A stretch of 17,891 bases of DNA from Thermoproteota archaeon (lineage in GTDB: Archaea > Asgardarchaeota > Njordarchaeia > Njordarchaeales > Panguiarchaeaceae), in NCBI GenBank assembly GCA_024720975.1, contig JANJXX010000012.1, forward strand, positions 1-17,891, in the 5' to 3' direction. The notes beneath the pieces are model-generated. The model searched no databases, had not been told where the DNA came from, and was given only the letters and a program-made list of their open reading frames with translations. Both the position numbers and the translations under genes were made by a program. This document shows positions 2,404 through 17,891 of this stretch, one piece after another (positions within the stretch are counted from its first letter, which is position 1; each line of letters opens with the position of its first letter).

Positions 2404-2766
2404 TCACTTTTCGGCTGTTACTATTTTTACATCCTCCTTTTTAAGGCCGTAGAGGTGATAGTCAGGGGTCAATTCAATAGCTTTCGTTGGACAGTGTTCT
2501 GCACATAAGCCACAAAATATGCATTTATAGTGTATGAATTGAGGCTCCTTTTTCAATTGTGTTCTTTCGCTTGGAACCATAACAATGGCGTTAGCTGGGC
2601 ATACTGTTGCGCACATACTGCAACCTGTACACTTGCTCACGGTCCACTTTATTCGACCTCGGTATCCCTCTGCTGGTTTTATCTCTACAAATGGATAGTG
2701 GATTGTGAATGGCTTTTCCACAGATTTTCTGAATACTTCCTTGATGATTTTGGGTATTAGGCCCAT
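2404..2766 (-). CDS. nuoI: NuoI/HycF/MbhN-like 2x[4Fe-4S] subunit of the complex-I-like hydrogenase
   Basis: Motifs FTIHYPF, YRGRI, CTGCSMCATVCP and CIFCGLCAEHCP. The ATG at 2766 (MGLIPKII) is preferred to the ORF-track start at 2799. Confidence 0.9.
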   Translation of the reverse strand: MGLIPKIIKEVFRKSVEKPFTIHYPFVEIKPAEGYRGRIKWTVSKCTGCSMCATVCPANAIVMVPSERTQLKKEPQFIHYKCIFCGLCAEHCPTKAIELTPDYHLYGLKKEDVKIVTAEK

Positions 2767-2847
2767 AGGAATCCCTTTAAGAAAGAGTGAGAAATGCATT
2801 AATTAAAATACCACATATTAGCAAAGGATACTATTCCAAATGCAAGA

Positions 2848-4335
2848 CTAGCTAATTAATGCTTTTCCTGCAGCAGCTCTTGCAAAGGTTTCTGCGAGTC
2901 CTGGGTATACACCAAGGGCTATTAGTATCAAAGTTGGGAGTCCTAATGCTAAGCTAACATAGGCTGGTGTTCTGATTTTAGCTATTTTCTCACTAGGTTC
3001 GTCGATGAAGATTCTCTTAACTAATAGACCATAATAACCTGCTGATATTCCGGAGTTTACTACTAGTGCTAATCCAAGCCAAAGTAAATTCGCATCTAGG
3101 GCAGCGAAGAATAGATAAACTTTGCCGGCAAATCCGGCTAATGGTGGCATTCCAAGTAGACTCAACAGGCCAAGGGCGAATACGAATGATATGTATGGAT
3201 TTCTACTTGACAATCCGCTAATTTCGTCTATTGTCGTTATATTTAGATGCTTCCAGACAATTCCAGTAATGGAGAAGACTAGCACTTCCGCCATTGCGAA
3301 TACCAATGCATAGAATATAGCTGCTGTTGCCCCATAGAGTGTACCTGCAACGAGACCCATTAGGATGTATCCTACTTGGGATATGCTTGAGTATGCAAGC
3401 ATTCTATAAATATCTCTCTGCTTCAGGGCCACGATATTTGCATATGTCATTGTTAGGAATGCTAGTATGGCGAAATATGCTTGAGCACTGATTCTTAGTA
3501 CAGGTGCTAACATGAGCACTATTCGAAGAAGCGCCGCAAAGCGAACGGCTTTTATTGTTCCTGATAGGTAAGCTGTCACAGGATGTGCGGAACCTGTGTA
3601 TGTATCTGGAGCCCAGCTGTGGAAGGGCACGATTGTCATCTTTACACTAAACCCTATTACTAGAAGCAGTACTGCAAGACCAAGCAATATGTCATTGAAT
3701 GTACTTTCGAGGGCTTGCTCTAGAGCAGGTTTTAGCATATATATGTTTGATTTTCCACTTATGGCAATGAGTATGGCTAACCCAAGCCCTAAGAAGGCAG
3801 AGCTCGTGGCACCCATCACATAGTACTTCAACGCACCCTCAGTACTTCTTCTCCAGTTGAATGCATATAAGACAAGACCGTAAAGTGGTACTGAAAGAAG
3901 CTCCCAGGAGACATATAGGGTTATCAGGTCTGTTGCTGCTGGAAGCAATATTAATCCTATTGATGTTCCAGTCATGCATGCAAAGAAAACTGGTATCGCT
4001 GGTAGCCCCTTGATATAGTGCTGAGAGATTAGTATCACAATTAATGTCGCAAAAATGCCGAGTGATGCGAAGAATTTTGCGAATTCATCGAATAGGAAGT
4101 ATTCTTTGGTAGGATCAAACGCTTCTGCTGGGGATATCAGTAATATTGCTTCAGTGATCAGCAATGCTGACAGAACCACCACGAAGGCCAATATATTTCG
4201 CTTTGTTTTGCTGAACCGCTCTATTAGCAAGCACAAGAATGTTGCTATGAATAATATTGCTACAGTTGTTACGAGGGCAGGTCTCGCTGTGAATATATTA
4301 ATTAACTCCGTAAGCTTTTCAATAACTCCTGTCAT
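2848..4335 (-). CDS. nuoN: NuoN-like antiporter-like membrane subunit
   Basis: Motifs SWELLSVPLY, EGALKYY, GFSVKMTIVPFHSWAPDTY, RMLAYSSISQVGY and GMPPLAGFAGK, with the conserved Glu/Lys/Lys/Lys axis of NuoN. Confidence 0.9.
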   Translation of the reverse strand: MTGVIEKLTELINIFTARPALVTTVAILFIATFLCLLIERFSKTKRNILAFVVVLSALLITEAILLISPAEAFDPTKEYFLFDEFAKFFASLGIFATLIVILISQHYIKGLPAIPVFFACMTGTSIGLILLPAATDLITLYVSWELLSVPLYGLVLYAFNWRRSTEGALKYYVMGATSSAFLGLGLAILIAISGKSNIYMLKPALEQALESTFNDILLGLAVLLLVIGFSVKMTIVPFHSWAPDTYTGSAHPVTAYLSGTIKAVRFAALLRIVLMLAPVLRISAQAYFAILAFLTMTYANIVALKQRDIYRMLAYSSISQVGYILMGLVAGTLYGATAAIFYALVFAMAEVLVFSITGIVWKHLNITTIDEISGLSSRNPYISFVFALGLLSLLGMPPLAGFAGKVYLFFAALDANLLWLGLALVVNSGISAGYYGLLVKRIFIDEPSEKIAKIRTPAYVSLALGLPTLILIALGVYPGLAETFARAAAGKALIS

Positions 4336-4337
4336 CT

Positions 4338-5873
4338 TTACCAGCTTCGTAGGAATTGATTTACTACTGTTGTTGTCATGTATGAAGTTATAATCCCTGG
4401 AAGTATGCCGAACAGTATTATTAGTAGACTAAATGCTATGTATGGCATAGTTTCACGTATGGATAGATCCTTTGCTTCTTTCACTATTGGTGTTTCCTCG
4501 GACATTATTAGTCTTCTTATAGCCCATAGATACGTCCCAACTATAATACATGGAGCGAGCAGGATGACTAAAGTCCAAAGCATGTTAGCACTGATAAATA
4601 TGCTTAATGCCCCGATGAATACCTGAACTTCGGCAGCAAAGACAATCAACCCGGGCAGGCCAAAAACGGCTAGACTGCCAAAGATTATTAGCACTGCTAT
4701 TCTTGGAGTTGCTTTCCCGAGGCCGCCAAGTTCGCTGATGTGATATGTTCCTATGTGGTTTAAGAGCACACCAGCCATCAGAAACATAAGACCTATTGCT
4801 ACTCCATGTGCAAACATCTCGAATACACTGCCTATTATAGCAAATTGTATGTAGTCGTGTCCTATACCATTGATAATAGCATATGTTGCTGCCACAATTC
4901 CAAAGAATACATAGCTCATGTGATTTATTGATGTATAAGCGACTAGCCTCTTGAAGTTATCCTGTCCCATTGCAACAATGGCTGCATATACGCCGCTTAT
5001 AACTGCTATTGGTAAGTAAATCCATAACAGCCCGGTGAATCCGTGGGGTATTATCCAAGCCATTCTAACGAATCCGTAACCTCCCATCTTAAGTAGTAGA
5101 CCTGCCAAGAGGACACTTACGGGTGCTGGTGCCTCTACGTGAGCGTCCGGTAGCCATGTATGGAGCGGAAATAGGGGTAACTTTACTGCTAATCCTATGA
5201 ATATTAGTCCAAAGGCAAATACTTGTGCATGTGTAGGTATTCCACTTTGGGCTAATTCTATCATTTCGAATGTGTGGATGGGTGACATCATGTATAGGTA
5301 TATAAATCCTAGTAGCATGAATATTGAGCCTACAAACGTGAATATGAAGAACTTTATCGCCGCGTGTCGGGCTTTTTCAGGATGAGGGCCCCACCATCCT
5401 ATTAATAACATCATTGTTGGTAGTACTAGCTCCCAGAATAAGTAGAATATTATCAGATTTAGGGATATAAAGGTGCCTAGTATACCAACACTGAATAGCA
5501 AGTAAACGATAAAGTATAGGGGTCTATTCTTATCTTCTGGTATATGGTATAGAGATGACCAAGCAGCTAGAAAGCAAATTATACCTGTTAGGATTAGTAA
5601 CACCATACCAATACCATCGACGCCGAAGTGAAAGTTTATCCCTAGATTAGGCAGCCATGGGGCATACCACTCATATTGGAAGCTTCCAGAATTGAAGTCA
5701 AACCTGAGTGCCATAGCAATTATTATTAGTAGGTTAACTAGAGTTGCACCGATAGCTATGTAATCTGCAATCTTTTTAGACCATTTCATTACAGCAGCGA
5801 TCAGAAAGGCGCCAATAATGGGAACTATCAGCACTATTAGCATTGCGTTATTCCATAACCAATCTAGATTCAT
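4338..5873 (-). CDS. nuoM: NuoM-like antiporter-like membrane subunit
   Basis: Motifs FHFGVDGI, FWELVL, AVKLPLFPLHTWLPDAHVEAPAPVSVLLAGLLLKMGGYG and GLPGLIVFAAE (NuoM-type TM12 Glu). The ATG at 5873 is preceded by GGTGG; the track start is GTG 5882. Confidence 0.92.
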   Translation of the reverse strand: MNLDWLWNNAMLIVLIVPIIGAFLIAAVMKWSKKIADYIAIGATLVNLLIIIAMALRFDFNSGSFQYEWYAPWLPNLGINFHFGVDGIGMVLLILTGIICFLAAWSSLYHIPEDKNRPLYFIVYLLFSVGILGTFISLNLIIFYLFWELVLPTMMLLIGWWGPHPEKARHAAIKFFIFTFVGSIFMLLGFIYLYMMSPIHTFEMIELAQSGIPTHAQVFAFGLIFIGLAVKLPLFPLHTWLPDAHVEAPAPVSVLLAGLLLKMGGYGFVRMAWIIPHGFTGLLWIYLPIAVISGVYAAIVAMGQDNFKRLVAYTSINHMSYVFFGIVAATYAIINGIGHDYIQFAIIGSVFEMFAHGVAIGLMFLMAGVLLNHIGTYHISELGGLGKATPRIAVLIIFGSLAVFGLPGLIVFAAEVQVFIGALSIFISANMLWTLVILLAPCIIVGTYLWAIRRLIMSEETPIVKEAKDLSIRETMPYIAFSLLIILFGILPGIITSYMTTTVVNQFLRSW

Positions 5874-5882
5874 ACTAGCCAC

Positions 5883-6081: not shown

Positions 6082-6534
6082 ATGCAGAAGAAACTCAAGA
6101 GATGGGCATTTAAAAGAAGTCTTTGGGTGTTTCATGTAAATACTGGAGGATGCAATGGCTGTGACATTGAGATCGTTGATGCCCTTACACCAAAGTATGA
6201 CATCGAGAGATTTGGTATAAAGCTCGTTCCCTCACCTCGGCATGCGGATGTTCTCCTGGTTACGGGCCCTATTACAAAGAAGCAGGCTGACCTACTAAAG
6301 AGAATATATGAGCAAACGCCAGACCCAAAGTTTGTGGTAGCTATTGGAACTTGCGCAACTTCAGGAGCAACATTTGAGGGGGCGTATAATGTGATTGGTG
6401 GTGTAGATAAGGTAATTCCAGTGGATGCATATGTTGTTGGTTGTCCAGCAAGACCAGAAGCAATTATTGATGCTATTGCGACGCTAATTGATAAGATAGA
6501 TAAGGGCGAAGTAGAGAAAGTGGAAAAAGCTTAG
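6082..6534 (+). CDS. nuoB: Group 4 [NiFe]-hydrogenase small subunit (NuoB/HycG/MbhJ family)
   Basis: GGCNGCDIE has the hydrogenase-type CxxC rather than the adjacent CC of complex I NuoB. Other motifs: SPRHADVLLVTGP, IGTCATSG and VVGCPARPE. SD ggtg upstream. Confidence 0.93.
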   Translation: MQKKLKRWAFKRSLWVFHVNTGGCNGCDIEIVDALTPKYDIERFGIKLVPSPRHADVLLVTGPITKKQADLLKRIYEQTPDPKFVVAIGTCATSGATFEGAYNVIGGVDKVIPVDAYVVGCPARPEAIIDAIATLIDKIDKGEVEKVEKA

Positions 6535-6543
6535 GTGATACAT

Positions 6544-7011
6544 GTGGCTTATAAGCAAGGGGAAACTATAAGTCCTCAGGTACAAAACATTACCAGTTGG
6601 CTTAGGGAGGTTGGTGTAGAAACAGAAGTGAAACTTGACAAGTATAAAGTCGCGTGGGCTGAGATTCCTGCAGGAGAAACTAAGAAAGTAATAGGGTTGT
6701 TGAAGGAGAAGGGCTACAGACACCTGTCTACGATAACAGGTGTTGACTTGCCGGAGCAGGGTGTTATAGAACTTATATATCATCTAGCACCAGTAAAATT
6801 AGGCGAGTACCCAATTCTAGCATTAAAGACTAAGGTTCCAAGAGATAAACCTGAAATCGAAACAATAACAGACTTATTTGCTATCGCTATTGTTTACGAA
6901 AGAGAGGTTTATGACTTACTAGGTGTTAAGTTTATTGGGCATGCAGGTCTATCAAGAATTCTTCTACCTCGTGATGTTCCAGAGGATTATCACCCCCTCA
7001 GGAAGAAATGA
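6544..7011 (+). CDS. nuoC: NuoC/MbhK/EchD-like subunit
   Basis: Motifs HLSTITGVD, ELIYHL, YEREVYDLLGVKFIGH and YHPLRK. The GTG at 6544 follows a GGTGA SD; the track start is 6535. Confidence 0.9.
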   Translation: MAYKQGETISPQVQNITSWLREVGVETEVKLDKYKVAWAEIPAGETKKVIGLLKEKGYRHLSTITGVDLPEQGVIELIYHLAPVKLGEYPILALKTKVPRDKPEIETITDLFAIAIVYEREVYDLLGVKFIGHAGLSRILLPRDVPEDYHPLRKK

Positions 7012-7026
7012 TCGGAGGTGTGTAAT

Positions 7027-8238
7027 ATGGGTATGTATGTTCCAATAGGTCCTTATCATCCGGCTTTAAAGGAGCCCATAACAATAAAGATTAAGGTTGA
7101 GGGTGAAAAAATAGTAGACGCTGACATAGAGCTTGGCTACAATCACAGAGGCATAGAGAAGCTTCTGGAGTCAAAGTTATGGATAAGCGTTCCATTTATT
7201 TCTGAACATATTTGCGGTATATGTTCCGGAGTTCATCAGATGACGGCTATAATGGGCATTGAGCGAATATTCGATATGGAGGATAAAATTCCTGAGAGAG
7301 CCAGAATGCTGAGAATAGTAGGACTAGAGCTCGAAAGGATTCACAGCCATCTGCTATGGCTTGGCGTAGCAGCTCACGAATCCGGTTTTGATACAATATT
7401 CATGTATACGTGGAGGGACAGAGAGTCGATTCTGGATTTACTTGAGATGCAGGGAGGGAGGCGAGTAGTATACTCTATTGGTAAGGTTGGAGGAGTTAGA
7501 AGAGACGTCGATGATAAGTTTATAAGAAAGGCAAAGGAAACCATGAATTATATAAAGAAGCGCGCTCAAGAATACATGAAAGCTTTTGAGGAAGATCCAA
7601 CGTTATTGGCTAGATTTAAGAATGTTGCTCTTCTGCCCTATGACGTCGCAGTTAATCTCGGTGCTGTTGGTCCGACTGCCCGTGCCTCTGGCATCGATTA
7701 CGACGTACGATGGGAAGACAGATACTTTGGTTACAGCGAAGAAATAGGACTGAGAGTTGCTGTCAGGAAAGAGGGCGACGCTCTAGCTAAAGCTTTGGTG
7801 CGATTAGATGAAATTATAATCTCAGCGGAAATCATAGAAAATGTTCTTGAAAACTTACCTGCAGGGCCTATAGAATTGAAGTTTCCTCCACTAAAAACGC
7901 CAGCTCCTGGGGAAGCTGTTGCAAGGTCTGAAGCACCAAGAGGCGAATTAATATACTACTACCGCTCGGATGGTAAGAGAACTCCATATAGAGTTAAGGT
8001 ACGAACACCAACAATGGCTAACATCCTATCGGCCGGATACATGGTTCGCGGTGGTTATATAGCTGACGTACCTGTAGCATTCGCAACGATAGATCCATGC
8101 ATCGCTTGTATGGAAAGATGTATAATAGTGGATGACGGTAAACAAGTAAGAAAACTTGATTGGGCTAAGCTTAAGCACTATGCGAATAAGTGGTTTAATG
8201 AAAATTGGCATTGGATTAAAGAAGAGAGAATCTATTAG
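7027..8238 (+). CDS. hycE: Group 4 [NiFe]-hydrogenase large (catalytic) subunit (HycE/MbhL/EchE family; NuoD homologue)
   Basis: GPYHPALKEP carries the proton-transfer Glu. Also GYNHRGIEK, L1 EHICGICS (7204-7227), ELERIHSHLLWLG, EAPRGE, RTPT, L2 DPCIACMER (8092-8118) and a 39-aa tail. The ATG at 7027 follows GGAGGTG; the track start is 7018. The symbol denotes the family, not FHL orthology. Confidence 0.92.
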   Translation: MGMYVPIGPYHPALKEPITIKIKVEGEKIVDADIELGYNHRGIEKLLESKLWISVPFISEHICGICSGVHQMTAIMGIERIFDMEDKIPERARMLRIVGLELERIHSHLLWLGVAAHESGFDTIFMYTWRDRESILDLLEMQGGRRVVYSIGKVGGVRRDVDDKFIRKAKETMNYIKKRAQEYMKAFEEDPTLLARFKNVALLPYDVAVNLGAVGPTARASGIDYDVRWEDRYFGYSEEIGLRVAVRKEGDALAKALVRLDEIIISAEIIENVLENLPAGPIELKFPPLKTPAPGEAVARSEAPRGELIYYYRSDGKRTPYRVKVRTPTMANILSAGYMVRGGYIADVPVAFATIDPCIACMERCIIVDDGKQVRKLDWAKLKHYANKWFNENWHWIKEERIY

Positions 8239-8239
8239 C

Positions 8240-9007
8240 CTATTTTTCTTTACTGAGTATTTTATTCAATATTTGAGCAAATTCCTCCGGCTTCTCAAGC
8301 ATTAAGTTATGGCCCGCTTCATCGATAACTATGATTTCATCACACAGCTCTGAGTATGCTGACTTCTGGTATTCGAATGGAACGGCTAAATCATATTTTG
8401 GAATTATTGCAACCTTGCGAGCCTTAATAGCCTTTAGATCTTCAACTATTGACACCCCATTGAATGTTTTCAGGAACTCTATATATGCCTTTATACTTCC
8501 CTTAGCAGACTCCCTCCAAATGAATTCTAATAGATCTTTTCTGGGCTGATATAGCGTTCTGGGGGTTATGGTCCGTCTTGCAACTGGTGTTAGAAATCTC
8601 AGCAAAAATGCAGTATTCAGGAGCTTAAGTTTCGAGAACTTTATTTCAGGTGGTGTCGCAACTAAAATTAAATCTCTTACCTTAAATTCGCTTGCTTGAG
8701 AAGCGAACTTAGCAGCTATTATTCCTCCGAGACTGTGACCCACAATGCTAAGTTCTGTTACCCTAAGCCCGCGCAGGAGCTCTGATAAATCCATTAGTAT
8801 TCTTTCTAGTGAATAGTCCTTTGACCTATCTGAGTCGCCGTGTCCCCTGAGATCAGGTATTATCTTTCTAAAGCCTGGCAAGTTCCTTACTGGATGCCAG
8901 AATGCCCTTGTTGCGGCCCATCCGTGTATAAACAGAACTGTATGTCCGTAGTCAATAGCATCGTATACGATCCTCGTGCCATCTGACATTATTGCAATAT
9001 ACTCCAC
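8240..9007 (-). CDS. Alpha/beta-fold hydrolase
   Basis: Motifs LFIHGW, PDLRGHGDS, nucleophile elbow GHSLGG, candidate acid in KYDLAVP and His in AGHNLMLE. The GTG start is preceded by ggtgcatc. Confidence 0.9.
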   Translation of the reverse strand: MEYIAIMSDGTRIVYDAIDYGHTVLFIHGWAATRAFWHPVRNLPGFRKIIPDLRGHGDSDRSKDYSLERILMDLSELLRGLRVTELSIVGHSLGGIIAAKFASQASEFKVRDLILVATPPEIKFSKLKLLNTAFLLRFLTPVARRTITPRTLYQPRKDLLEFIWRESAKGSIKAYIEFLKTFNGVSIVEDLKAIKARKVAIIPKYDLAVPFEYQKSAYSELCDEIIVIDEAGHNLMLEKPEEFAQILNKILSKEK

Positions 9008-9107: not shown

Positions 9108-11162
9108 GTGGTCCTGCCTATGTTTCTAGAGATGTCATGGCTCATACCTGGGTTGCTATTTATCATCCTACCGCTCGTGGTAATCCTCGAATACAAAAGA
9201 ACGTATCTGGGAGCACTTCTCTCAATATTCGCTGGCACTGTATCTACTATATTATCAATAGGAGGCCTGATTGAAATCCTAAGCGGATATAAACTGCCTC
9301 CCGATGCACTCAAGATCGTTTGGTTAAAGTATGGGACTTTTGAGGTATCATTTGGTATTCTTGCAGATGAACTTTCAATGTTCATGGCTTTTATAGTGTC
9401 ATTTATTGGAACGCTAATTCTAATATATTCGCTAGAGTACATGCGCCATGATAGAGAACATAGTGTATGGGCGTGGCCAAGATACTTTTTTGAGATAACC
9501 TTATTCATAGCCTTTATGCTCATGCTAGTCCTGTCATCAAACCTTCTCCAGCTGCTAATTGCATGGGAAGGCGTAGGACTCTGTTCTTATTTGCTAATAG
9601 GCTACTGGTGGTGGAAACCAGAAGCATCAAAAGCTGCCAAGAAGGCGTTCATAACTACAAGGATAGGTGACCTTTTCCTATACCTGGCCACGGCTTACGC
9701 ATTTTTCGTTTTCCACACACTTGATGTCGCAAAATTAAATGAAATTAGTGGTAGCATGGTCAGTCCTTCATTGGGAATAATTGCCCTGTCCTTGTTTGGA
9801 GCCGCTATAGGTAAGAGCGCTCAGATACCATTATTCACCTGGCTACCATGGGCTATGGAGGGTCCGACAACGGTTTCTGCACTAATTCACGCAGCTACAA
9901 TGGTCAAAGCGGGAGTTTTCCTAGTAGCTAGGTTCTATCCACTCTATATGCATGCTCCAGCCGTATTTGGAATAGAACCGCTTGTATTTGTTGCATACAT
10001 TGGAGGCCTTACAGCGGCTTTTGCTGGCGTACTGGCAGTCTTTAACAACGACGTCAAGGGTGTGCTAGCATACTCAACTATATCTCATCTGGGATTGCTG
10101 TTCCTAGCGCTGGGTGTTGGAGCATATACAGCTGCTCTATTTCACCTACTAAATCACGCATTCTTTAAGGCTGGATTATTCCTCGTAGCTGGAAGCGTTC
10201 TACATGCTACCCATGATCTGAGGGAACTGCATAAGCTCGGCGGGTTAAAAGATCACATGAAATGGACTCTACTATTTGCATTTATTGGAGGCTGGGCCAT
10301 AGCTGGATTTCCATTATCTGGAGGCTTCTGGAGCAAGGATGAAATACTAATAGAGACAGCAGCTACGGGGGATATTACATTATTCTTGCTAGGATTTATA
10401 GCAGCAATAACTGGTGCAGCATATACATTCCGATGGATAAGTCTAATGTTCTACGGCAAACCGAAAAGCAAAGAGGCAGAACATGCTCATGAAGCCAATC
10501 TAATAATGCTCATACCAATTGCTATCTTAGTTACTGGAGCAATTCTTTGGGGTATACCAATACTTCATCACGGTAAACTCGCTCCCATAGGTTTAGTCTT
10601 AACAGAACAAATCTCACAAGCCTTGGGAATAACTATTCACGCAGCAGGACCAGCAGAAAAGTTATTTATGCCTAAAGAAGTGATAATGATCATAACGGTT
10701 GGAGTAAGTTTCGTTCTCGCATTAGTCATGTTCTACACATATGCTATTAAGTGTGTTGACTTCTCCAAGCACAGAAGACTCATCAAAATCCAAAGTGCAT
10801 TGCAGCAAGGAACGATTATAGACGTCATATATGATAAGATGGCATACTTCTTCGGAACCCGCATAGCAAAAGGAGCGGCAACATTTGACACTAAAGTCGT
10901 AGATGCTATATACTATAAGATAACGTACTTATTCGGAATCATCATTGCAAAATGGGCAACATTATTCGATATAAACGTCATAGATGCACTATTCGAAAGA
11001 ACTCCAAGAGCTATGAGAAGACTTGGAAGCTTTCTTGCTAAGATTCAAACCGGTCACATTAACACATACATGGCGACATTGACTGTGGGTATAATCATAC
11101 TCATATGCCTATTCCTCGGAGGACTTCTAGGCTTTAATTTAGTAAGTCTTCTCCTAGGATAA
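9108..11162 (+). CDS. nuoL: NuoL-like antiporter-like membrane subunit with an extended C-terminal amphipathic helix
   Basis: Motifs AWEGVGLCSYLLIGYW, KAFITTRIGD, GKSAQIPLFTWLPWAMEGPTTVSALIHAATMVKAGVFL, HAFFKA, GFWSKDEI and the terminal IQTGHINTY plus final TM. Alternative ATG at 9120. Confidence 0.94.
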   Translation: MVLPMFLEMSWLIPGLLFIILPLVVILEYKRTYLGALLSIFAGTVSTILSIGGLIEILSGYKLPPDALKIVWLKYGTFEVSFGILADELSMFMAFIVSFIGTLILIYSLEYMRHDREHSVWAWPRYFFEITLFIAFMLMLVLSSNLLQLLIAWEGVGLCSYLLIGYWWWKPEASKAAKKAFITTRIGDLFLYLATAYAFFVFHTLDVAKLNEISGSMVSPSLGIIALSLFGAAIGKSAQIPLFTWLPWAMEGPTTVSALIHAATMVKAGVFLVARFYPLYMHAPAVFGIEPLVFVAYIGGLTAAFAGVLAVFNNDVKGVLAYSTISHLGLLFLALGVGAYTAALFHLLNHAFFKAGLFLVAGSVLHATHDLRELHKLGGLKDHMKWTLLFAFIGGWAIAGFPLSGGFWSKDEILIETAATGDITLFLLGFIAAITGAAYTFRWISLMFYGKPKSKEAEHAHEANLIMLIPIAILVTGAILWGIPILHHGKLAPIGLVLTEQISQALGITIHAAGPAEKLFMPKEVIMIITVGVSFVLALVMFYTYAIKCVDFSKHRRLIKIQSALQQGTIIDVIYDKMAYFFGTRIAKGAATFDTKVVDAIYYKITYLFGIIIAKWATLFDINVIDALFERTPRAMRRLGSFLAKIQTGHINTYMATLTVGIIILICLFLGGLLGFNLVSLLLG
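10821..10982 (+). repeat. In-frame 81-nt tandem duplication inside nuoL (lateral helix)
   Basis: 10821-10901 versus 10902-10982: 56/81 nt and 14/27 aa identical by hand alignment, without gaps. Confidence 0.85.
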
Positions 11163-11297: not shown

Positions 11298-11609
11298 ATG
11301 ATGGATCCCCTAAGTGTAATCCTGCTAGTGATAATACCTTTCATACTGCTTACAATATTATACTCGTTGGGTAAAGTTGCCAGGAGGGAAACAGGTCGAG
11401 AGCCATTTGCAAGCGGCCACGCATTTCCAAGTACTTATATTCCATATAAGCCACGATGGCTCTATTACATCGCGCTCTTTATTCTGTGGGACATTATAGT
11501 AATTTTCATACTATTCATGGCGTCTGAAATGAGTTTGTATGTTATCACATCCCTGCTAATCTTAATAGCGACAATGCTTGCCTATCCCATTAGAATCTCT
11601 AAGGGGTAG
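11298..11609 (+). CDS. nuoA: NuoA-like membrane subunit (divergent)
   Basis: Three TM segments, loop EPFASG (cf. NuoA xPYECG) and RWLYYIALFILWDII (cf. YYLVAMLFxxFDVE). It lies directly upstream of nuoH. Confidence 0.75.
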   Translation: MMDPLSVILLVIIPFILLTILYSLGKVARRETGREPFASGHAFPSTYIPYKPRWLYYIALFILWDIIVIFILFMASEMSLYVITSLLILIATMLAYPIRISKG

Positions 11610-11614
11610 TTAAC

Positions 11615-12610
11615 ATGCTTGAGAAAGTAATATTTTCCCTCAAAATAATTGCTTGGACTATTGTAGTTATCTTCTTAGCATTCCTCGTGGAGTGGTTCTA
11701 CAGGAAGGTACTCGCACACATGCAACACAGAGTTGGACCTAAACTAGCAGGAAAATTGGGAATTTTGCAGCCAATAGCTGACTTTATAAAGTTGATGAGG
11801 AAACGTCAAATATCCCCGGCTGGAACTGACGAGTTCTTTGTTGACTTTACAGCAATATTTGGACTCTGGCTAATGATAATACCAACAATGTTCCTGCCGA
11901 TATTTGGCCTGGAGGGATTCATAAGCTTTGAGGGAGATGCTGTATTAATAATAATGCTGCTGGCAATTTCTAGTCTTGTGTACATAGTGACACCATACCT
12001 ATTTCCATCACCATACCCAACTATTGGCGCTGGGAGAAGAGCTGAATTATATCTATCTTACGAGATACCAATGTTCCTTGCATTTGCCTCTGCAATCTTT
12101 GCTGCTGGGTCTTTAAGAATAAGTGAAATAATCTTTGCTCCAACAATAATTAGGAATGATATACCCACCGGAATTTTACTAGTACCAGCACTAATTGTTG
12201 CAATATTAAGCAGCATGTCTAGGCTCAAGAAAGTGCCATTCGATGCTCCTGTAGCCGAAACAGAAATTGCTGGAGGTTGGGAAGCGGAGCTTTCGGGGCG
12301 AAGATTGGCTTTCTTTAATTTGCTAACAGATGTAAAGTTGTTCGTAATGGGCGCGATAATAACCACCTTCTTCCTTGGAGGTCCATTAGGCCCAATGATT
12401 CTAATTAGTGGGTTGGAGTGGATACTCGCTCCCGTATGGTACGGATTCTGGTTCTTCCTCAAAACAGTGGTCGTCATATTTATAATAACTGCTGTATCTG
12501 CAGCTACTGCTCGCTTCAGGATAGACCAAGTCTTAAAAATTTTCTGGGATAGGCTTCTATATCTGAGCGTATTCCAAGTAATCTTGCTAATCCTCTGGTG
12601 GAGCCTATGA
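11615..12610 (+). CDS. nuoH: NuoH/HycD/MbhM-like membrane anchor subunit
   Basis: Motifs RKVLAHMQHRVGP, GILQPIADFIKL, LSYEIP, PFDAPVAETEIAGGWEAELSG and ARFRIDQ. Confidence 0.93.
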   Translation: MLEKVIFSLKIIAWTIVVIFLAFLVEWFYRKVLAHMQHRVGPKLAGKLGILQPIADFIKLMRKRQISPAGTDEFFVDFTAIFGLWLMIIPTMFLPIFGLEGFISFEGDAVLIIMLLAISSLVYIVTPYLFPSPYPTIGAGRRAELYLSYEIPMFLAFASAIFAAGSLRISEIIFAPTIIRNDIPTGILLVPALIVAILSSMSRLKKVPFDAPVAETEIAGGWEAELSGRRLAFFNLLTDVKLFVMGAIITTFFLGGPLGPMILISGLEWILAPVWYGFWFFLKTVVVIFIITAVSAATARFRIDQVLKIFWDRLLYLSVFQVILLILWWSL

Positions 12611-12861
12611 TCGGGTTAGAGGAGCTTATTGTATACATATTGGGAGTGGGGCTCGTCCTATTCATAGCTCTGACTGTGGAGACAAAAAAGCTATATAGAA
12701 TGCTAATTTACTTTATGCTAGCAAACTTGTGTCTACTCGGAATTTTAGGGTTATTTGGTCTTTGGATTATCGGCAGCCTTGTAGTACTAGTGAACATTGG
12801 TGTTATTGTCATATTCCTATTCCTAACGATGATAATTGGCGAGAGGTTAGAGGAAAAATGA
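12607..12861 (+). CDS. NuoJ N-terminal half (J1-like)
   Basis: ATGA overlap with the nuoH stop. Three TM helices with VLVNIGVIVIFLFLTMI (cf. NuoJ VYxGAIxVLFLFxxM). Position between nuoH and nuoK. Confidence 0.7.
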   Translation: MIGLEELIVYILGVGLVLFIALTVETKKLYRMLIYFMLANLCLLGILGLFGLWIIGSLVVLVNIGVIVIFLFLTMIIGERLEEK

Positions 12862-13112
12862 TTAGGAGGCAAATAATTGCTGTCCTTTTATCGATAGTAG
12901 CTCTTGCATCCATATTTTGGATACTTAGCTATTTACCCCCAGTGAATCTTACTGCAAAGGAGTTCGAGCTTGAGCAATTCCGGCAGGCTATATGGCTAGA
13001 GTATGGAGCAGTAATGATAATAATTGCGATGATAACTAGCGTGGTCTTGATAGTATCTCTATTCGCAATGAGAATCGCAGAAACAGTAGAAACCATGGGT
13101 GAGAAAGGATGA
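12858..13112 (+). CDS. NuoJ C-terminal half (J2-like)
   Basis: The ATGA overlap with the J1 stop gives the real start at 12858, not 12729. TM-loop-TM with AIWLEYGAVMIIIAMI (cf. NuoJ LFTxYxxxFExxSxxL). It also overlaps the nuoK start by ATGA. Confidence 0.65.
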   Translation: MIRRQIIAVLLSIVALASIFWILSYLPPVNLTAKEFELEQFRQAIWLEYGAVMIIIAMITSVVLIVSLFAMRIAETVETMGEKG

Positions 13113-13411
13113 TCTCAACATTCTTAATGGCAGTATCAATAGTTGTTATTATTCTCGGTTTATACGGCCTCATGTCAAAGAAGAACTTAATCAAGATGTT
13201 CATGACAATAGAGATAATATTCTTTGGAGTAATAATAGCAGTCGCTACCCTAGCGCTAGTAGCAGCAAATCCTTTAACAACTCAGTTTTTCATTCTAATA
13301 ATAGCACTTGTAGCAGCGCTTGAAGAGGCTATCGGAGTTGGTATATTGCTAGTTGTAAAAAATGTAACTGGGACTATCGATGCCGATACTTTGACTGAGC
13401 TAAAGGAATAA
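13109..13411 (+). CDS. nuoK: NuoK/MrpC-like small membrane subunit
   Basis: GLYGLMSKKNLIKMFMTIEII and ALVAALEEAIGVGILL, with both conserved membrane Glu. C-terminal GTIDADTLTELK. Confidence 0.9.
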   Translation: MISTFLMAVSIVVIILGLYGLMSKKNLIKMFMTIEIIFFGVIIAVATLALVAANPLTTQFFILIIALVAALEEAIGVGILLVVKNVTGTIDADTLTELKE

Positions 13412-13478: not shown

Positions 13479-13826
13479 TTGAACATAATTGAGAAATACG
13501 ACTTTGGACTAATAATAATCAGTGGACGCATTTTTCATCGCGATGTAATAGTGTTTCCCGATGAGATACATGCGAATTGGTGGCGTAAGGAGGGTCACAA
13601 GCTTTGCATTGAAGATTTAGAAATCGTTCTCAAGAAGAGACCAAATATACTCATCATAGGCACGGGGTACAGTGGGGTTATGAGAGTTCCAGAGGAGGTT
13701 AAAGAGTTCTTAAAGAAGCAGGGTATAGAGGTTATCATAGAAAACACACAAAAGGCTGTCGAAACATACAACAAGCTCGCACGCGAGAATAAGAATGTAG
13801 CTGCAGCACTCCACCTTACATGTTGA
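13479..13826 (+). CDS. Mth938-like domain protein (DUF498/NDUFAF3 family)
   Basis: Motifs YDFGLIII, WWRKEGH, LIIGTGYSG, AVETYN and C-terminal AALHLTC. TTG start with ggtgag SD. Confidence 0.88.
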   Translation: MNIIEKYDFGLIIISGRIFHRDVIVFPDEIHANWWRKEGHKLCIEDLEIVLKKRPNILIIGTGYSGVMRVPEEVKEFLKKQGIEVIIENTQKAVETYNKLARENKNVAAALHLTC

Positions 13827-16789: not shown

Positions 16790-17870
16790 CTTTCAATTCT
16801 CTTTGTGAGATTCCTCGCTAGTAGCTGTAGCAATAGCAGAGCCTTTCAATTCTCTTTGTGAGATTCCTTACCTCAACGTACGGGCGTAGAGCTTGTGCTA
16901 CAAAGCTTTCAATTCTCTTTGTGAGATTCTGGTGAATACTATGATCCTTCTCGTCAAAAGCATTTTCTCCTTTCAATTCTCTTTGTGAGATTCGCCCAGG
17001 GCACAATCTTCTAATTCTTCTATGTCTAACTTTCAATTCTCTTTGTGAGATTCAGGCGATGCATATCTGTTTAAATGCAAAACAATGCAGTGCTTTCAAT
17101 TCTCTTTGTGAGATTCAATTTGACGGAATCGACCCAGAGTGGATCTCCAAAGTCGTTGACTTTCAATTCTCTTTGTGAGATTCTGATTACTATTCTCTTT
17201 GTCATGACTAGACACTCTCATATATTTTACTTTCAATTCTCTTTGTGAGATTCCTGTTTCTTCATCAAAGTATGACGTTACTCTAACTGCCCTTTCAATT
17301 CTCTTTGTGAGATTCAATGAGATACACATATATACCAGCGAAAGAATTAAAGAAGCTTGACTTTCAATTCTCTTTGTGAGATTCGAAGCTGACTACATTT
17401 TTAAAGACTTTGTTGTGACGTTCCTTTCAATTCTCTTTGTGAGATTCATTCTACTTGAAAAACTTGGTGAGGGCGAAGAAAAGTTCTTTCAATTCTCTTT
17501 GTGAGATTCTCGCTGCTTTTCGGTTGGGCTCCTTTGCCTTCAGTGAACTTTCAATTCTCTTTGTGAGATTCCTGTGATAGTCTTCTTATCAATGCGCTCT
17601 TAGCAGTACCCTTTCAATTCTCTTTGTGAGATTCCTTCTTTAGCACGTAGGCTCGAGGCCGAGCTTGCGAGCTTTCAATTCTCTTTGTGAGATTCCAGCA
17701 TCATATATGGTGATGTATAAAAATTTTCTATTTGCTTAAAACTTTCAATTCTCTTTATGAGATTCAAAGAGGTACAAAGCTCACTTTCAATTCTCTTTGC
17801 GAGATTCTCCACCTGGCGCATCGGATTCATTACCAATGCTCTCGAGCTTTCAATTCTCTTTGCGAGATTC
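16790..17870 (-). CRISPR. CRISPR array: 18 repeats of 24 nt (GAATCTCACAAAGAGAATTGAAAG on the minus strand) and 17 spacers; may continue past the window end
   Basis: ctttcaattctctttgtgagattc starts at 16790, 16843, 16906, 16970, 17030, 17093, 17160, 17230, 17292, 17361, 17424, 17486, 17548, 17611 and 17672, with variants at 17742, 17784 and 17847. Spacer lengths are 29,39,40,36,39,43,46,38,45,39,38,38,39,37,46,18,39. Orientation is inferred from the ATTGAAAG 3' end (archaeal type I-A/III-like repeats). Confidence 0.98.
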
Positions 17871-17891
17871 GATGATTAAACGATGGGGTTT

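Follow-up and report, generated by a model that had tools for sequence, protein, structure and literature searches.

The lateral helix (HL) of NuoL is an amphipathic strap that runs from transmembrane helix 15 (TM15) of that subunit along NuoM and NuoN to the anchoring helix TM16, and its length has been read as a sign that a complex has an additional proton pump. The 2M complex I, whose gene clusters encode a second NuoM, was reportedly described by Chadwick et al. (2018, ISME J 12:2668) and is cited in three further papers (PMC9040806, PMC6606698, PMC7300363). An insertion of ~26 amino acids (aa) in the NuoL HL was postulated to span four pumps in the 2M complex I of Nitrospira (PMC9040806). 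Yu et al. (2022) found the same HL insertion in the NuoL of Complex_I_1 and Complex_I_2 of Candidatus Manganitrophaceae, which are not the extra-pump complexes, and left its meaning open (PMC9040806). In section 7 of their preprint, Appler et al. (bioRxiv 10.1101/2024.07.04.601786) describe group-4 [NiFe]-hydrogenases with a complex-I-like architecture in Heimdallarchaeia, including Njordarchaeales; this enzyme class has been proposed to link hydrogenases and complex I. Here we analyze a stretch of 17,891 nucleotides (nt), hereafter the window, that is the entire contig JANJXX010000012.1 of a 1.36-Mb metagenome-assembled genome (MAG; GCA_024720975.1; 81% complete) from the Njordarchaeota (Asgard), and the public metagenome runs that contain it are hot-spring samples. 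Its nuoL gene carries a tandem duplication inside the HL, and a single nuoM accompanies it. We consider it probable that this is a lineage-specific duplication of one HL period in a three-pump complex whose strap is one period longer, and that it is a length variant rather than a marker of an extra pump gene.

A tandem repeat inside the lateral helix

An earlier, sequence-only reading of the window had proposed an in-frame, 27-aa (81-nt) tandem duplication inside the HL, and our analysis confirms it. In an ungapped, in-frame alignment the two units (Table 1) are identical at 56 of 81 nt and 14 of 27 aa, far above the background of the gene itself: 81-nt segments of nuoL compared in frame, 199,396 pairs in all, share a mean of 22.1 matches (standard deviation, 4.1), and all 15 pairs with at least 50 matches are part of this repeat, with a maximum of 58 of 81 at a 6-nt shift. 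The units have diverged too far for the score of Tandem Repeats Finder, which reported nothing. Identity by codon position is 20, 22, and 14 of 27, the FD..vvD motif is kept in both units, and the nonsynonymous (dN, 0.28) and synonymous (dS, 1.12) divergence between them (dN/dS, ~0.25) shows, at the level of substitution rates, that both copies have been under purifying selection since the duplication. A contig from an independent study reads through the entire region without a joint, with 18 differences; it has two units, so the two-unit allele is not an assembly artifact of one sample. No joint of a one-unit allele was found in the contigs of four runs from four other studies, and three runs gave no bridge across the unit junction, in a search of public runs that used contigs, which drop rare variants. 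The contig of one independent hot-spring run (X6) has C instead of T at window position 10825, which changes DV... in unit 1 to DA..., the state of unit 2, and which could be either a point mutation or a small unit-to-unit conversion.

The repeat lengthens the predicted helix by one period. By alignment, 102 aa separate the end of TM15 from Q-T-G in the window NuoL (P0001), compared with 76 aa to the equivalent Q-T-G or E-N-G in both the Escherichia coli NuoL and P0003, the NuoL of a sister lineage with one unit; these counts bear out the net gain ahead of Q-T-G (+26 aa against either). An AlphaFold2 (AF2) monomer model of the window NuoL (m226b4ec358b4) has a mean predicted local distance difference test score (pLDDT) of 92.5, with block means of 84 to 92 over the HL, and renders the HL as one helix; the HL of the AF2 model of P0003 measures 51 aa (residues 566 to 616), compared with 77 aa in the window. 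The models thus show a gain of 26 residues of unbroken predicted helix, ~40 Å by arithmetic. The window model matches solved NuoL chains at VIA Z values of 50 to 52, and its core and HL start superpose on the E. coli NuoL at 2.1 Å as far as residues 592 to 594, equivalent to E. coli 562 to 563. With TM16 included in the superposition on E. coli, the root mean square deviation is 12 Å for the window and 13.9 Å for the short-helix control P0003, so that monomer models place TM16 unreliably. G649 of the Q-T-G ahead of TM16 is nearly invariant in our alignment (A4). That canonical NuoL has one FD..VVD unit, as the earlier reading assumed, agrees with a search of the PDB using a two-unit helix profile: the five chains with printed alignments (three NdhF, the NdhF-type 6tjv_F, and the NuoL of Paracoccus) each match through a single FD..VVDG unit used twice. 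No solved chain with two units was found in this search, the weaker matches of which cover part of the profile.

The most informative comparison is with the sister. P0003 is the closest relative of the window NuoL outside the same species, is 72% identical to it overall, and has exactly one unit fewer. Its contig (L016) is fully syntenic with the window (I-N-M / B-C-D / hydrolase / L / A-H-J1-J2-K), and its NuoM is 74% identical to the window NuoM, the lengths of the two differing through the called start only; one and the same set of genes therefore accompanies the short and the long helix. The NuoL of the closest species (G003), which is 85% identical, ends at residue 493 at a contig end, before the helix. 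A second clade of the genus (G002, G004, contig C196 of G001 [P0004], and P0007) is 59 to 60% identical to the window NuoL and 70 to 74% identical mutually, and all of its members have two units, as does the second family of the order (f3). These extra units appear to differ in origin. The head of unit 2 in the window scores 27 against the head of unit 1 and 11 against that of the tail segment, whereas in the congeners and f3 the better match of the unit 2 head is the head of the tail segment (16 to 35, against 1 to 10 for the head of unit 1), and the duplication breakpoints of the window lineage therefore differ from those of the congeners and f3. The two window units share 45 of 80 and 47 of 81 nt with the unit of the sister, fewer than they share with each other, and their third positions are identical at 52%, whereas orthologues of window and sister agree at 37% of third positions (32% within the helix). 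In the second clade, by contrast, unit 1 and unit 2 are at background (52 to 59% nt identity), while orthologous units reach 69%.

On this sequence evidence, the extra unit of the window is the product of an event separate from, and younger than, the extension in the congeners, and strap length has shifted by exactly one period on two or more occasions within one Asgard genus, the breakpoints being different. The younger unit may have arisen by a new duplication in an ancestor with one unit, or an older unit may have been converted. The latter scenario, in which two units were ancestral to the genus, the sister lost one, and unit 1 of the window overwrote unit 2 by gene conversion, has in its favor the two units in all other examined members of the genus and order, and P0003 in alignment matches the first part of unit 1 and the last part of unit 2, the pattern expected from a deletion by unequal crossover. 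It requires more events, however, and unit 2 of the window has no residual similarity above background to unit 2 of the congeners; we regard it as possible but on balance unlikely, and either way the result is a young second copy of unit 1.

Several observations on these relatives are recorded here in their own right. Between window and sister, the NuoL tail with TM16 (10983 to 11162; 51% identity) and NuoJ2 (52%) have diverged most, followed by NuoJ1 (65%) and NuoN (66%), with B, C, D, H, and M at 74 to 88%. NuoJ and NuoN are the canonical neighbors of TM16; this is a single pair without a control, and the divergence of TM16, J, and N may mean no more than that small membrane subunits evolve fast. 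The nuoL of the other clade is not followed by nuoA-H-J-K, and the fetched surroundings of nuoL in G004 (contig C18; L022/L030) and G002 (L005/L027) showed neither nuoA/H/J/K nor nuoB/C/D; the scattering of nuo genes thus differs within the genus. G001 (2.7 Mb, 5% contamination) contains a one-unit NuoL nearly identical to P0003 in addition to the two-unit P0004 (contigs C148 and C196; L007 and L018), with one full nuoM and a partial nuoN; two species have probably been binned together here, and a single genome with two complexes is the less likely reading.

Helix periods in relatives and the search for a fourth pump gene

A survey of more distant relatives places the window repeat in a wider pattern. 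We searched 1.84 billion proteins, took the 150 best cluster representatives, and counted the 114 among them with a recognizable Q-T-G. In nearly all of these the motif D-x3-[VIL]-[DN], most often in the form D-x3-[VIL]-D, is placed 26 residues ahead of Q-T-G; it recurs at -52/-53 in 31 of the 114 and at -78/-80 in a few. This spacing implies that the length of the HL changes in quanta of 26 to 27 residues. As read from these sequences, the strap of the surveyed NuoLs is built of 26- to 27-aa periods bearing the acidic motifs Y-x-D-E-x-Y and F-D-x2-[VI][VI]-D, followed by Q-T-G. One relative, P0128 (758 aa; L025, 10001 to 15331), has three to four helix units and lies in an A-H-J-K-L-M-N membrane module, which is preceded by FlpD- and HdrB/C-like genes and not by nuoB/C/D/I.

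The sequence-only reading had taken the duplication as the signature of a fourth pumping module and had suggested that an additional nuoM, nuoN, or mrpD paralogue might lie elsewhere in the genome. At the gene level, neither suggestion was supported. A PF00361 profile search of the window MAG returned three loci only (L, M, and N), and no second nuoM was found by the same profile in this MAG or in four congeneric MAGs (the five being 75 to 83% complete). Each of the four congeners has L, M, and N; the one extra match is the second nuoL of G001, the large and possibly mixed bin. The f3 cluster has hypA, a gene for an NBP35-like ATPase, and then nuoAB-CD-H-I-J-K-L-M-N in one row, and it combines a long helix with one M. 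Five unrelated clusters whose NuoL has at least two units likewise encode L-M-N only, and three of them are complete A-to-N operons. No two-unit NuoL followed by M-M-N occurs among the complete clusters of the nearest representatives, and three look-ups intended as positive controls added nothing (short contigs, or a cluster cut at a contig end). All seven long-helix cluster types examined, archaeal and bacterial, thus encode L, M, and N only; the mismatch between a long strap and a single nuoM is common, and these gene inventories add to the evidence that a long helix fails as a marker of an extra pump at the gene level.

The earlier reading was right that nuoM and nuoN stand apart from nuoL, on the opposite strand, but its argument from separate transcripts for employing NuoM twice fails, since the mismatch also occurs within a single operon, in f3. 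Its further point, that a repeat still recognizable in the DNA shows how such HL insertions arise, stands.

What the longer strap may do

An 81-nt duplication of the middle period has added a second FD..vvD motif to the strap. Under the preferred reading, the complex keeps three pumps, with the strap exceeding the canonical one by one period. The additional period would make a specific contact instead of looping out; most plausibly TM16 would be brought one module closer to the NuoK/J/A/H end, or else the strap may follow a longer path. Strap length would then be a recurrent, quantized variant, with indels of unit size producing both gain and loss. It is very improbable, by contrast, that the complex is of the true 2M type, with a second nuoM or mrpD paralogue in the unassembled 19% of the genome. 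The MAG is incomplete, and its nuo genes are already spread over several transcription units; five congeneric MAGs nevertheless contain L, M, and N only, apart from the extra nuoL in the possibly mixed bin, the sister contigs have the same gene set, and one M is found in the more distant long-helix relatives and in the five unrelated clusters. The extra 27 residues could also be nearly neutral slack that bulges, kinks, or rests against the lipid, with normal packing of L-M-N and TM16; changes of unit size would then recur only because repeats favor unequal recombination. Units have indeed been gained and lost within one genus with gene content unchanged, and most substitutions and insertions in the E. 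coli HL give a normal growth phenotype (PMC3274701). We think this explanation quite unlikely: dN/dS between the copies is ~0.25 with FD..vvD retained in both, old two-unit families keep the 26- to 27-aa spacing and the motifs, which slack does not predict, the AF2 model has the HL unbroken at block-mean pLDDT values of 84 to 92, and the two-unit form is also present in an independent sample.

The main rival is a double use of NuoM. The HL would act as a ruler, with two copies of the single NuoM (or of NuoN) between NuoL and NuoN, to give four pumps from three genes in a 2M-like arrangement. The extra length is one HL period, which is what was postulated to reach across a fourth pump in the Nitrospira 2M complex I (PMC9040806); the strict unit length and the conservation of a docking-type motif in each unit point to a partner that is itself periodic, both copies are under purifying selection, and L, M, and N are paralogues, each with a PF00361 match. 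No precedent is known to us for one antiporter-like subunit in two nonequivalent positions of a complex, however, and the sister pairs a 74%-identical NuoM with a short helix; the DNA is silent on stoichiometry, and the argument from separate transcripts fails against the single operon of f3. We therefore judge the arrangement unlikely. Its broader form, in which a ruler HL sets the number of pump modules, one 81-nt duplication turned a three-pump, H2-evolving complex into one with four pumps although no gene was added, and the one-nuoM, long-helix enzymes are precursors of 2M complexes, seems to us unlikely as well; were it true, the one-unit sister and the window would naturally represent the states before and after such a change.

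Several points weigh against the three-pump reading that we prefer. Stoichiometry is unreadable from DNA, so two NuoM per complex stays compatible with our data, and the strict 26- to 27-aa quantization with motif retention is no less compatible with docking on a further antiporter-like module than with docking on NuoK/J/A/H; length quantization, if anything, favors double NuoM use. Insertions of 6 to 7 aa in the E. coli HL lower pumping efficiency in the same mutational study, and a mismatched strap is thus not obviously harmless (PMC3274701). The AF2 models are monomers, and the superposition of TM16 failed its own short-helix control; two-unit complexes are without any solved structure; and the MAG is 81% complete.

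The gene cluster and its described counterparts

The contig carries a 12-gene cluster with all 11 core complex-I subunit types (NuoABCDHIJKLMN) and no NuoEFG (Table 1). The NuoL contains both antiporter domains (Proton_antipo_M, PF00361, 5e-69; Proton_antipo_N, PF00662, 5.2e-15), scores 499.8 bits against TIGR01974 NDH_I_L (cut-off, 407.5), and matches the Thermus thermophilus Nqo12 at 1.4e-91, in an alignment reaching Nqo12 568 to 601, and the E. coli NuoL at 9.7e-88. The evidence for NuoA and NuoJ1 consists of weak Pfam matches, but both genes are syntenic with the sister contig. The [NiFe]-hydrogenase identity that the earlier reading assigned was upheld by the nickel ligands of NuoD, where EHICGICSGVH supplies the N-terminal CxxC (L1) and DPCIACMER supplies the C-terminal DPCxxC (L2). 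By its sequence the window enzyme matches a group-4 [NiFe]-hydrogenase whose membrane arm is of the full complex-I type.

Table 1. Features of the window discussed in the text
Feature	Position	Strand	Remarks
nuoI	2404-2799	-	2x[4Fe-4S] ferredoxin-like subunit; Fer4 family matches
nuoN	2848-4335	-	Top NCBIfam match TIGR01770 NDH_I_N, 312.7 bits, slightly below cut-off of 332.6; PF00361, 3.8e-64
nuoM	4338-5882	-	TIGR01972 NDH_I_M, 407.9 bits, above cut-off; sole nuoM in whole-genome PF00361 search
nuoB	6082-6534	+	Part of nuoB-C-D block, 6082-8238
nuoC	6535-7011	+	
nuoD	7018-8238	+	CGICSGVH and DPCIACMER retained; PF00374 N-terminal match, 4.3e-09
alpha/beta hydrolase	8240-9007	-	Between nuoD and nuoL
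nuoL (P0001)	9108-11162	+	684 aa; distal antiporter-like subunit with lateral helix HL
TM15	10674-10748	+	Residues 523-547; anchor before HL; AF2 helix
Helix HL	10815-11045	+	Residues 570-646; 77 aa; one unbroken helix in AF2 model
Repeat unit 1	10821-10901	+	Residues 572-598, DVIYDKMAYFFGTRIAKGAATFDTKVV; docking-type motif FDTKVVD
Repeat unit 2	10902-10982	+	Residues 599-625, DAIYYKITYLFGIIIAKWATLFDINVI; motif FDINVID; lineage-specific extra copy, more hydrophobic
TM16	11058-11129	+	Residues 651-674; terminal anchor after Q-T-G (647-649); AF2 helix
nuoA	11298-11609	+	Block nuoA-H-J1-J2-K, 11298-13411; order as in sister contig L016
nuoH	11615-12610	+	
nuoJ1	12598-12861	+	
nuoJ2	12858-13112	+	
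nuoK	13109-13411	+	

Other features of the contig deserve brief mention. The L1 motif of NuoD, at 7204 to 7227, reads EHICGIC. NuoJ is split over two genes (12598 to 13112), the start of J2 most likely lying at 12858 with a 4-nt overlap with the J1 stop, and the sister has an equal split (83 + 84 aa). The hydrolase gene, on the strand opposite to nuoD and nuoL, keeps its position in the sister contigs, where its product is 71% identical. A DUF498/Mth938-type protein (PF04430, 3.2e-31) is encoded at 13479 to 13826, immediately after nuoK, and the same family adjoins nuoI in L016; we take PF04430 to be the family of the complex I assembly factor NDUFAF3. A clustered regularly interspaced short palindromic repeat (CRISPR) array occupies 16790 to 17871, with 18 repeats of ~24 nt (CTTTCAATTCTCTTTGTGAGATTC) at spacings of 42 and 53 to 70 nt; the 42-nt spacing is the one short one, the last three repeats are sequence variants, and the array stops ~20 nt before the contig end.

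Among described systems, the E. coli NuoL HL (PDB 3RKO and 7P61) has the same fold (VIA Z, ~50) but one FD/D563-type period between Y-x-D-x-x-Y and E-N-G, where the window NuoL has two. The Asgard enzymes of Appler et al. share with the window a complex-I-type membrane arm, a NuoBCDI peripheral arm without NuoEFG, and hydrogenase motifs in NuoD. Section 7 of that preprint does not treat the length of the helix, and a text search of it returned no occurrence of "lateral helix" and one of "NuoL." The window NuoL is likewise ~26 aa longer in the HL than canonical forms, as in 2M complex I, but the second NuoM that 2M clusters encode was not found in the window MAG or its four congeners, and the window enzyme is archaeal and keeps the [NiFe] cysteines. 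Complex_I_1 and Complex_I_2 of the Manganitrophaceae present the same mismatch, an HL insertion without an extra NuoM (PMC9040806); those enzymes are bacterial, the insertion there is not described as a recognizable young tandem duplication, and no one-unit sister is described (PMC9040806). A lengthened NuoL strap with a single nuoM has thus already been reported; the present case contributes a duplication that is dated and confined to one lineage, in a hydrogenase-type complex of an Asgard archaeon whose syntenic sister has one unit, and the pair is a good system in which to ask what an extra 40 Å of helix does.

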